Counted from the first letter of the stretch, positions 2,391-3,402 are shown. The stretch: 8,928 nt of DNA from a virus (IMGVR_UViG_2657245131_000016); one strand, 5' to 3'. Numbers and translations: made by a program. The notes: generated by a model from the sequence alone, not told the origin.

Positions 2391-3402
2391 AAAGGTGAAA
2401 ACCGGCAGTTCATCCAGTAAGTCAGTATTGACCTGGCTTGCTGATATGTGCGGTGCCGATTTGTGTGCATACCCGTCTGTATCTGCACTGGCAGAAGTAA
2501 CGGAACTGAACAAAAAGACTGTGCAGGACAGCTTACGACACCTGATGGAGATTGGGTTAATTGTTGATACCGGTGAGAGAAAAGGCAGAACAAAGCAAAT
2601 TGTGGTGTACCGACTTATCGGTGTAGAAGAAAGTGTTGCCGAGCCTGAATACACCCAAAAACGGGAGTCTTTAAAGGTGGGTAAAATTGGTGCTGTTAAT
2701 AAAAACAGTACCGAAAATGGTTATGTTTCAGCACAAAACAGACCCAAAAACAGAACTCTTAGCTGCATGGAAAATAACCAAAGACACCCAAATTTTCCAT
2801 CAAAGACACCCAAAAACGGATCACGGAACCCAAAGGAACCCAAAGATCTAAACCCCACACATAACGCACGCGAGAGTGCTCCGACCAGTGAGCAGGAAGT
2901 TTTGTCGTTACAGGCAGCCCCCCCTGTATTCCTGTATGGCCTGAGCGAACCCATCGGAAAATTCCCGATGAGCGATAGCTGGTATCCGTCACGGGATTTT
3001 CGACGACGGGCTGCGTTGTGGGGGATGGCTTTGCCGGAGACAGAATTTACACCTGCTGAACTTGCCGCCTTCCGGGACTACTGGGCAGCGGAGGGGAAAG
3101 TGTTTACGCAGATTCAGTGGGAGCAGAAATTCGCCCGTCACGTAAATCACGTCAGGGCGCAGGTTAAACCAGTCAGCAAAGGGGTAAACCATGCAGCAGC
3201 ACCAGGTGGCACCGCATCACGGGCAGTTCAGGAAATTCGGGCAGCACGTGAGCAGTGGGAACGTGAAAACGGATTTATCAGCGACGGAAACGGCCTGGAA
3301 GCTGTGGGAACTCATGGGGGTGGTTTATTCGAACCGCTGGACCCAGAAGAACGGGGCCGCACCTTCGAAGCTCTGGATTGCACAGATTGGCGCGATGACT
3401 GA
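2362..3402 (+). CDS. replication initiation protein, O-like (N-terminal winged-helix DNA-binding domain, C-terminal DnaT-like domain)
   Basis: Start placed at the ATG at 2362, which has an AGGGG Shine-Dalgarno 5 nt upstream; the track's 2287 start lacks one. The N-terminus MSIDALRWAKKV...SALAEVTELNKKTVQDSLRHLMEIGLI is typical of prophage initiator helix-turn-helix domains. The C-terminal part (SDSWYPSRDFRRRAALWGMALPETEFTPAELAAFRDYWAAEGKVFTQIQWEQKFARHVNHVRAQ) looks like the DnaT-type domain found in such initiators. A repetitive linker lies between them. Confidence 0.8.
   Translation: MSIDALRWAKKVKTGSSSSKSVLTWLADMCGADLCAYPSVSALAEVTELNKKTVQDSLRHLMEIGLIVDTGERKGRTKQIVVYRLIGVEESVAEPEYTQKRESLKVGKIGAVNKNSTENGYVSAQNRPKNRTLSCMENNQRHPNFPSKTPKNGSRNPKEPKDLNPTHNARESAPTSEQEVLSLQAAPPVFLYGLSEPIGKFPMSDSWYPSRDFRRRAALWGMALPETEFTPAELAAFRDYWAAEGKVFTQIQWEQKFARHVNHVRAQVKPVSKGVNHAAAPGGTASRAVQEIRAAREQWERENGFISDGNGLEAVGTHGGGLFEPLDPEERGRTFEALDCTDWRDD
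2741..2846 (+). repeat. iteron-like direct repeats (ACCCAAA core) inside the O-like gene; candidate replication origin
   Basis: At least five copies: GACCCAAAAAC 2741-2751, AAAGACACCCAAA 2779-2791, AAAGACACCCAAAAAC 2802-2817, and tandem GGAACCCAAA / GAACCCAAAG at 2825-2845. They fall in the linker between the two domains of the initiator, as the lambda origin does within O. Confidence 0.5.

Follow-up and report, generated by a model that had tools for sequence, protein, structure and literature searches.

In phage lambda, the replication genes O and P follow cII in that order, the iterons of the replication origin lie within O itself, and the two genes overlap by 4 nucleotides (nt). The C-terminal domain of the lambda O initiator was found to engage P-DnaB, and the disordered N-terminus of the P loader has been proposed to contact O (PMC12661323). 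A second pairing has been described in which a P-family protein, DopE, is partnered by DopC, a protein that joins an HTH_36 N-terminus to a DnaT C-terminal motif (Brezellec et al. 2017, PMC5509034). The locus considered here lies in the viral sequence IMGVR_UViG_2657245131_000016 (8,928 nt, referred to at its full length as the window), and resembles lambda both in its gene order (cII-like, initiator, loader) and in the presence of iteron-like repeats inside its initiator gene, but its O-like initiator gene and P-like helicase-loader gene overlap by 212 nt rather than by 4. Comparison of related loci, together with structural models, indicates that the shared segment, nt 3191-3402, is very probably translated in two frames, with P initiated independently at an ATG at position 3191.

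Openness and constraint in the shared segment

An earlier note on the window had drawn attention to this overlap, and had set a true out-of-frame overlap beside two alternatives: a start of P that should be moved to 3395 and coupled to termination of the O-like gene, or an O-like gene whose C-terminus had been lengthened by mutation. The positions that it gave for the ATG and Shine-Dalgarno (SD) sequence of P, and for an O-like frame open to 3402, were found to hold (Table 1). The true overlap was likewise supported, in that O homology extends to 3402 (homologues with 51-57% identity align over 100% of the protein, including its tail), homology within the P subfamily begins at about residue 28-35, and the Pfam match of P begins at residue 52. 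The note had also proposed an alignment of homologues, in which O homology reaching 3402 together with P homology confined to the part after residue 69 would favour the later start; the former was observed and the latter was not. An O-like gene extended by mutation was rejected because conservation of its tail extends across genera.

A scan of one genome per species yielded 40 loci (numbered with the prefix L), 33 of which carry a P N-terminal module of the window's type. An overlap of 149-224 nt with an upstream initiator open reading frame (ORF), in which the P frame is +1 relative to that of the initiator as it is across the 212 nt of the window, is kept in 31 of those 33 loci. These make up 18 clusters, defined at <75% nt identity, and span Escherichia, Citrobacter, Enterobacter, Klebsiella, Salmonella, Pectobacterium, Serratia, Yersinia, Erwinia, Rahnella and other genera, and in every lineage the stop codon of the initiator lies 64-136 nt past the W36 codon of P. 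Two loci (L027 and L035) were considered as natural examples of P genes without an overlap and were set aside, being remnants of prophages, with a deletion of the initiator and a P gene that lies against housekeeping genes.

The likelihood that both frames are open by chance was estimated by codon shuffling, in which one protein was held fixed, its synonymous codons were redrawn at random, and the other frame was checked for openness. With the P protein fixed, the share of trials in which the O frame was open had a median of 3% across loci (5.6% for the window); when the O protein was held instead, the corresponding median for the P frame was 24%. The joint chance over the 18 clusters is about 1e-28 for the O frame and 1e-11 for the P frame, values that were computed from the most permissive result in each cluster (at <75% nt identity) and that treat the clusters as independent, which is an approximation.

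Constraint is divided between the frames in a complementary fashion, with the O frame dominant over nt 3191-3270 and the P frame dominant from about 3271. Pairwise identity over nt 3191-3290 is 0.3-0.76 in the O frame and 0.1-0.3 in the P frame, and P is highly conserved from 3293 onward. Upstream of M42, conservation in the P frame reaches 0.81 at A35, 0.76 at W36, 0.82 at L38 and 1.0 at W39, at positions where the O frame is conserved at 0.2-0.46. Synonymous variation, which the earlier note had suggested comparing in the two frames, displays the same division, with O constraining nt 3191-3270 and P constraining nt 3271-3402: (i) O-frame synonymous identity, measured at identical residues, rises from 0.37 in the part ending at nt 3270 to 0.72-0.90 from 3271; and (ii) P-frame synonymous identity is 0.57 over residues 2-34, versus about 0.41 over the remainder of P. 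The rise in O-frame synonymous identity at 3271 indicates that P-frame constraint starts approximately 14 codons upstream of M42, which fits the position of the first predicted helix in P. Among 39 close haplotypes derived from viral contigs, the density of single-nucleotide polymorphisms is 0.13 in the overlap versus 0.30 and 0.21 in its flanks; these polymorphisms fall at third positions of both frames (a mixed phase), and no stop codon is present in either frame.

Start of the loader gene and competing explanations

The ATG at 3191-3193 is preceded by CAAAGGGGTAAACC, in which the SD core AGGGG (3180-3184) lies 6 nt ahead of the start codon. Across the 31 overlapping loci, a GGAGG consensus is found at -13 to -9 of the equivalent ATG, and a predicted anti-SD duplex of -7 kcal/mol or lower is formed in 27 of them, a level reached by 4.4% of the remaining ATG triplets in these genes. 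In five loci (L007, L015, L018, L019 and L029) this codon is the sole in-frame ATG, GTG or TTG upstream of W36. Synonymous sites of the O frame are also conserved across the SD and ATG (0.61-0.66 over nt 3163-3198, versus 0.30-0.45 in flanking blocks). A search for RNA structure that might mask the ribosome-binding site of P, and so link its use to translation of O, found the fold of nt 3130-3270 to be unremarkable (z = -1.47). As modelled, P would initiate at this ATG from its own GGAGG-type SD, placed within a tolerant Gly-rich linker of the O-like protein, and would do so independently of any termination-reinitiation at the O stop.

Each of two further in-frame ATG codons might instead serve as the start. 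Initiation at 3314 (M42) would produce a protein of 180 amino acids (aa) and an 89-nt overlap, and is unlikely, even though this methionine is strongly conserved, many database entries of 177-181 aa begin there, and its equivalents are preceded by a moderate SD (about -4 to -6 kcal/mol, occasionally -9), because the P-frame conservation of A35, W36, L38 and W39 and the constraint on O-synonymous sites both begin upstream of it, it lies within a predicted helix, and the ATG at 3191 has a far stronger and conserved SD. Initiation at 3395, which would reduce P to a 153-aa protein coupled to termination of O and the upstream P-frame ORF to a by-product, is less probable again. While the arrangement of ATG and stop is present, the start is used by the Prokaryotic Genome Annotation Pipeline (PGAP) and by several GenBank phage records, and sequence homology to lambda P starts near residue 68, the part upstream of this codon encodes seven invariant residues and is predicted to form three helices, P-frame constraint on O-synonymous sites begins at about nt 3271, and the P frame is open in all 18 clusters against the very small chance given above. 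The SD of M69 equivalents is weak (-3.1 kcal/mol in nearly all loci), and M69 itself is replaced by leucine in many lineages that maintain the same overlap (pairwise identity 0.49). The junction that the earlier note had called a classic ATGA reads ATGACTGA, an 8-nt overlap, and conserved P sequence and structure reach 34-40 codons upstream of 3395, unlike what is expected of termination-reinitiation of the ATGA type. A milder version of this proposal, in which a short isoform accompanies the 221-aa protein, could apply in those lineages that keep the methionine.

Other explanations concern the tail of the O-like protein and the way in which P is made. The tail of the O-like protein might be non-functional read-through, produced by a lost stop codon or simply as an alternative frame of P, with the real O protein ending near its DnaT domain. 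Such a reading finds some support in the predicted disorder of the distal tail (residues 305-346), in the lack of detectable added constraint from that part on P-synonymous sites, and in tail motifs that are imposed by invariant P residues; it is nevertheless highly improbable in view of an O frame that is open in 31 loci and 18 clusters at a chance of about 3% per locus, an O stop that is always found within the same interval past the P W36 codon, a helix (SRAVQQIRAAREQW) that is conserved where the P frame varies and that constrains P-synonymous sites, and the retention of the tail on at least four unrelated initiator bodies. The least probable of the readings weighed here is that P is made as an O-P fusion through a +1 frameshift, or that some members of the family have O and P as a natural fusion. 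It was raised by a PHROG family of 'unknown function', phrog_15931 (482 positions), which matches O (161-345) and P (4-221) end to end, an observation that indicates that fused or mixed sequences of O and P went into the family, and by the sequence P0108, which has an in-frame junction from O to P between the O helix and the AWxLWE motif of P. The P frame is however headed by a conserved SD and ATG, a conserved slippery motif was not seen, P0108 also reads through the stop codon of P (which suggests insertion or deletion errors of assembly), and a second such sequence, P0079, is a deletion that fuses P, at about residue 105, to a DUF1376-DnaT initiator.

Several observations weigh against translation of the whole segment in both frames from 3191. 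Residues 2-27 of P display no protein-level constraint, and the evidence for translation of this leader is for that reason confined to the conserved SD and ATG and to the requirement that P have a start codon. Synonymous identity in the P frame over residues 35-70 is 0.425, versus about 0.41 elsewhere in P, which indicates that the distal O tail (305-346) is selected mainly to stay open; its openness would occur by chance at 0.23 per locus, and the invariant K-N-G of P dictates part of the conservation of its EER/EEW motif. M42 is probably an internal methionine and possibly a minor second start. Literature searches yielded no detection of both products by ribosome profiling or proteomics, and in all the current records that were inspected, namely those of one RefSeq chromosome and of four phages in GenBank, P is given a later start.

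Those five records shorten the loader by 68-81 residues, with loss of a conserved three-helix module. The RefSeq annotation by PGAP gives P as 3395..3856 (153 aa), the records for Rac-SA53 and pPE4 use the equivalent of 3395, and those for Stx2a/PPompW and Citrobacter Chris1 use the next ATG (equivalent to 3434), giving proteins of 140 and 136 aa. Many homologues annotated by PGAP in Salmonella, Citrobacter and Klebsiella are 177-181 aa in length and start at M42; older or other pipelines produced proteins of 221-223 aa. Such late starts would be expected if gene callers penalise long overlaps, as we suppose that they do. P is systematically mis-annotated, as a protein of 153 or 140 aa instead of 221, and studies of structure, expression or interaction that are based on those shorter forms would employ a crippled protein. 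The mis-set start that the earlier note had entertained is thus real in public annotation; it does not describe the biology of the locus, where conserved P sequence lies upstream of 3395.

The overlap lends itself to experiment, as single-base substitutions can be made that affect only one frame. By computation, T3192C removes the ATG of P and is silent in O, and C3229T and G3331T introduce stop codons in O (Q290stop and E324stop, respectively) and are both silent in P.

The initiator tail, the loader module and their surroundings

The O-like protein comprises an HTH_36-like N-terminus, a low-complexity linker with the iteron-like repeats, a DnaT domain and a C-terminal tail. Its DnaT domain (PF17948; residues 201-267, nt 2962-3162) was identified by Pfam at 61 bits against a cut-off of 25, and DnaT chains in the PDB match the protein at 1e-18 to 1e-19; families of 'replication initiation protein' in PHROG match it as well. 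Its match to HTH_36, at 20.9 bits in Pfam, falls below threshold. The Phage_rep_O domain (PF04492) that marks the N-terminus of lambda-type O proteins gave no Pfam match in the window's O-like protein. The repeats inside the gene, by analogy with lambda, are probably the replication origin; 24-mers of the ACCCAAAAAC type are present in three copies alongside the CAAAGACACCCAAA repeats, in a region (2648-2844) of low G+C content (0.36-0.42).

The tails of the initiators have in common SRAVQQIRAAREQW, a Gly-rich stretch, a ..NLFEPLDxEE(R/W).. motif and an acidic end. AlphaFold2 (AF2) predicted a single helix in the tail of the window's protein, followed by disorder, with residues 307-346 at a predicted local distance difference test score (pLDDT) below 50. 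A search of a 5.8-billion-protein set using the 75-aa tail alone returned only 10 E. coli fragments, and was of no help in finding tail-bearing architectures.

The P-like protein matches Phage_lambda_P (PF06992) at 61.7 bits against a cut-off of 26, with residues 52-188 aligned to profile positions 24-161, and the lambda P structure 8v9t aligns at profile positions 68-190 (E = 6e-7, hmmsearch). The best PDB matches of its AF2 model are lambda P chains (9oa1 and 9oa2), sharing the fold of domains III-IV, to which DnaB binds, and 8v9s superimposes on the model with a TM score of 0.91 and a root-mean-square deviation of 1.0 A over 72 columns. The protein is predicted to be a loader of DnaB at the initiator-bound origin. 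No NCBIfam model exists for it, and hence none to guide the choice of a start.

The sequence homology of this protein to lambda P starts only at approximately residue 68, where the O frame ends, which indicates that the overlap encodes an N-terminal module specific to this P subfamily. Homologues of 221-223 aa are found in Enterobacter, Klebsiella, Citrobacter and other genera. Among 21 homologues with 43-78% identity, W39, W50, K53, N54, G55, P58 and W62 are invariant, all of them upstream of M69 and the first upstream of M42, and a motif over residues 35-68, AWxLWExMGEIYSNRWxxKNGxxPSxLWIAQIG, can be followed from Escherichia to Pectobacterium, Serratia and Yersinia. AF2 placed helices at residues 29-46, 48-54 and 60-67 (pLDDT about 77), continuous with the remaining protein. 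An exhaustive search of representative sequences with residues 1-75 gave 26 matches; several of these are long repetitive proteins, which, to judge from their length and their 5-7 matched stretches, probably reflect the low-complexity leader alone, and by this search the module is a narrow family. At codon 44 of P (nt 3321) the window itself reads GTG (Val44, MGVVYSNRW), where 32 of the 39 close haplotypes and most homologues have GAG (Glu, MGEVYSNRW), a change that is silent in the O frame (Gly).

Table 1. Coordinates of features in and around the overlap of the O-like and P-like genes
Feature	Position	Strand	Description
O-like replication initiator gene	2362..3402	+	346 aa; ATG 2362, TGA 3400-3402; same coordinates as PGAP coding sequence WP_000020556.1
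Iteron-like direct repeats, CAAAGACACCCAAA, three copies	2779..2844	+	Copies at 2779, 2801 and 2831; A-rich linker of O-like gene
SD of P, AAGGGG	3179..3184	+	Within O linker codons K-G-V; anti-SD duplex -7.9 kcal/mol
P-like helicase-loader gene (predicted)	3191..3856	+	221 aa; ATG 3191
Dual-coding segment (very probable)	3191..3402	+	212 nt; O residues 277-346 and P residues 1-70
P leader, residues 1-27	3191-3271	+	Predicted disordered (AF2, pLDDT <50); fast-evolving
O-tail helix, O residues 287-302, SRAVQEIRAAREQWER	3220..3267	+	Predicted by AF2; O-dominant part of overlap
P N-terminal three-helix module, residues 29-67, AWKLWELMGVVYSNRWTQKNGAAPSKLWIAQIG	3275..3391	+	Predicted by AF2; P-dominant part of overlap
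O distal acidic tail, residues 305-346 (..GGGLFEPLDPEERG..DCTDWRDD)	within 3275..3391 and on to O stop	+	Predicted disordered (AF2)
In-frame ATG, M42	3314..3316	+	94% conserved; SD -4.2 kcal/mol; inside predicted helix 29-46
ATGACTGA, in-frame ATG M69 and O stop	3395..3402	+	ATG 3395-3397, TGA 3400-3402; 8-nt overlap

Comparison of the upstream initiators demonstrated that they differ: they contain Phage_rep_O (L017), HTH_36 (L018 and the window) or DUF1376 (L020 and L021), and further examples have no Pfam match (L019 and L029) or only a sub-threshold, evidently spurious one (L026). Initiators with or without a DnaT domain alike end in the same kind of tail, and its occurrence on at least four initiator architectures makes it look like a loader-specific adaptor that travels with P. 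In four loci from Enterobacter and Trabulsiella (L038-L041), P is a mosaic in which a lambda-type N-terminal half (..RRQWALAFRENGITTMEQVNAG..) is joined near residue 90 to a C-terminal half with 47-50% identity to that of the window; in L038, the one locus of this group that was read, the initiator is without the tail and overlaps P by 16 nt.

In the mechanism that we favour, in which the segment is read in both frames, the O frame would contribute a C-terminal tail consisting of a short linker, an amphipathic helix and a disordered acidic end, and the +1 frame would contribute the start of P, namely a leader of 27 disordered residues and then the first three helices of the N-terminal module. 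Constraint would be divided accordingly, with a free P leader lying over the O helix and a loose, open O tail lying over the P helices. As it is the type of P N-terminus, and not the body of the initiator, with which the tail co-varies, and as the O frame ends where lambda-P-like sequence begins, the two elements are proposed to be mutual docking elements of the initiator and the loader, by analogy with lambda. Their co-encoding might make the adaptor and the loader a single unit of recombination, capable of being grafted onto unrelated origin-binding domains. A further step, which we offer tentatively and consider somewhat doubtful, is that the overlap is an indivisible adaptor cassette, in which both docking parts occupy the same 150-224 nt and a cognate interface cannot be separated by mosaic recombination; were this so, the overlap would have been selected for linkage of an interaction interface, and not for genome compaction or coupling of expression.

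Over 2287-3900 the window shares 100% identity with a defective lambdoid prophage that is present in E. coli O121, O26, O103 and O111; matches to this segment exist in 1262 of 5426 complete E. coli genomes, and the module is found in many other Enterobacterales. The prophage represented by the window corresponds to PPompW of O121:H19. Its genes follow the order cI-like (on the minus strand), cro-like, YdaT/cII-like, O-like initiator, P-like loader and DUF1627. The ORF in the position of cII (1839-2390, 183 aa) resembles YdaT_toxin (21.2 bits in Pfam, cut-off 21), and its end overlaps the start of the O-like gene at 2362 by 29 nt. Directly 3' of P lies a DUF1627 protein (3890-4624; 308.7 bits) with a winged-helix-like N-terminal region. 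The same family is found 3' of P in the other loci that were looked at, namely L001, four phage records and, by appearance, L038. It might represent a third, conserved component of the module, at the position of lambda ren.

Minus-strand ORFs span 3278-3722, and are taken to be by-products of a doubly coding segment rich in G+C (0.52-0.64). Farther downstream (4754-8806) the window contains cargo and signs of decay, including a frameshifted fimbrial gene, the paa (AcfC-family) adhesin gene (5484-6242), hokD (6521-6733), and a 330-aa ORF (7561-8553) whose end (8408-8553) is shared with a separate 132-aa ORF (8408-8806) that we guess to be a terminase fragment. These features suggest deletion and a defective prophage.

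Comparison with described systems

Genes that encode two proteins from one DNA segment in different frames have long been represented by phiX174 A/B/K and D/E and by lambda Rz/Rz1 (reviewed in PMC8227390 and PMC6195259), and the present overlap resembles those classical cases in that the less constrained frame is disordered and fast-evolving (PMC8227390, PMC6195259). As in a functional same-strand overlapping pair, both frames are open beyond chance, the start signals are conserved, and selection is visible in each frame. It differs from them in being terminal, with the C-terminus of one gene lying on the N-terminus of its neighbour rather than one gene being embedded in another, in having a dominant frame that switches halfway, and in encoding products that are presumed to be binding partners in a single pathway. 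The locus accordingly offers a clean natural case of two partner proteins that share DNA, in which order in one frame is matched by disorder in the other and the dominant frame changes in the middle of the segment.

E. coli DnaT is related to the O-like protein through one domain: residues 197-267 of the latter align with the DnaT structures 6aep, 9zbt and 4ou6. The match is to the C-terminal domain only, however, and scores 93.4 bits against an equivalog cut-off of 201 (primosomal protein DnaT, NCBIfam NF002770); DnaT itself has neither an HTH N-terminal domain nor the tail, and is not followed by an overlapping P gene. DopC and DopE have the same domain architecture as the O-like and P-like pair, but are chromosomal, domesticated and found in other gamma-proteobacteria; a long overlap or a shared tail is not reported for them in PMC5509034, the comparison having been made with that paper and not with the loci.

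The closest relationship is to lambda. The loader of the window belongs to Phage_lambda_P and, over its C-terminal two-thirds, is matched to lambda P by both sequence and fold; lambda P has no sequence counterpart of residues 1-67, and the lambda initiator is composed of Phage_rep_O and the lambda O C-terminal domain, in place of the HTH_36, DnaT and tail found here. Literature searches found no description specific to a long overlap of O and P. The manner in which the tail travels with the loader gene suggests how the specificity between an initiator and its loader outlasts the rampant mosaicism of phage genomes. Taken as a whole, the locus is best placed as a variant of lambda's O/P module, set apart by its conserved two-frame junction of 150-224 nt and its portable tail.

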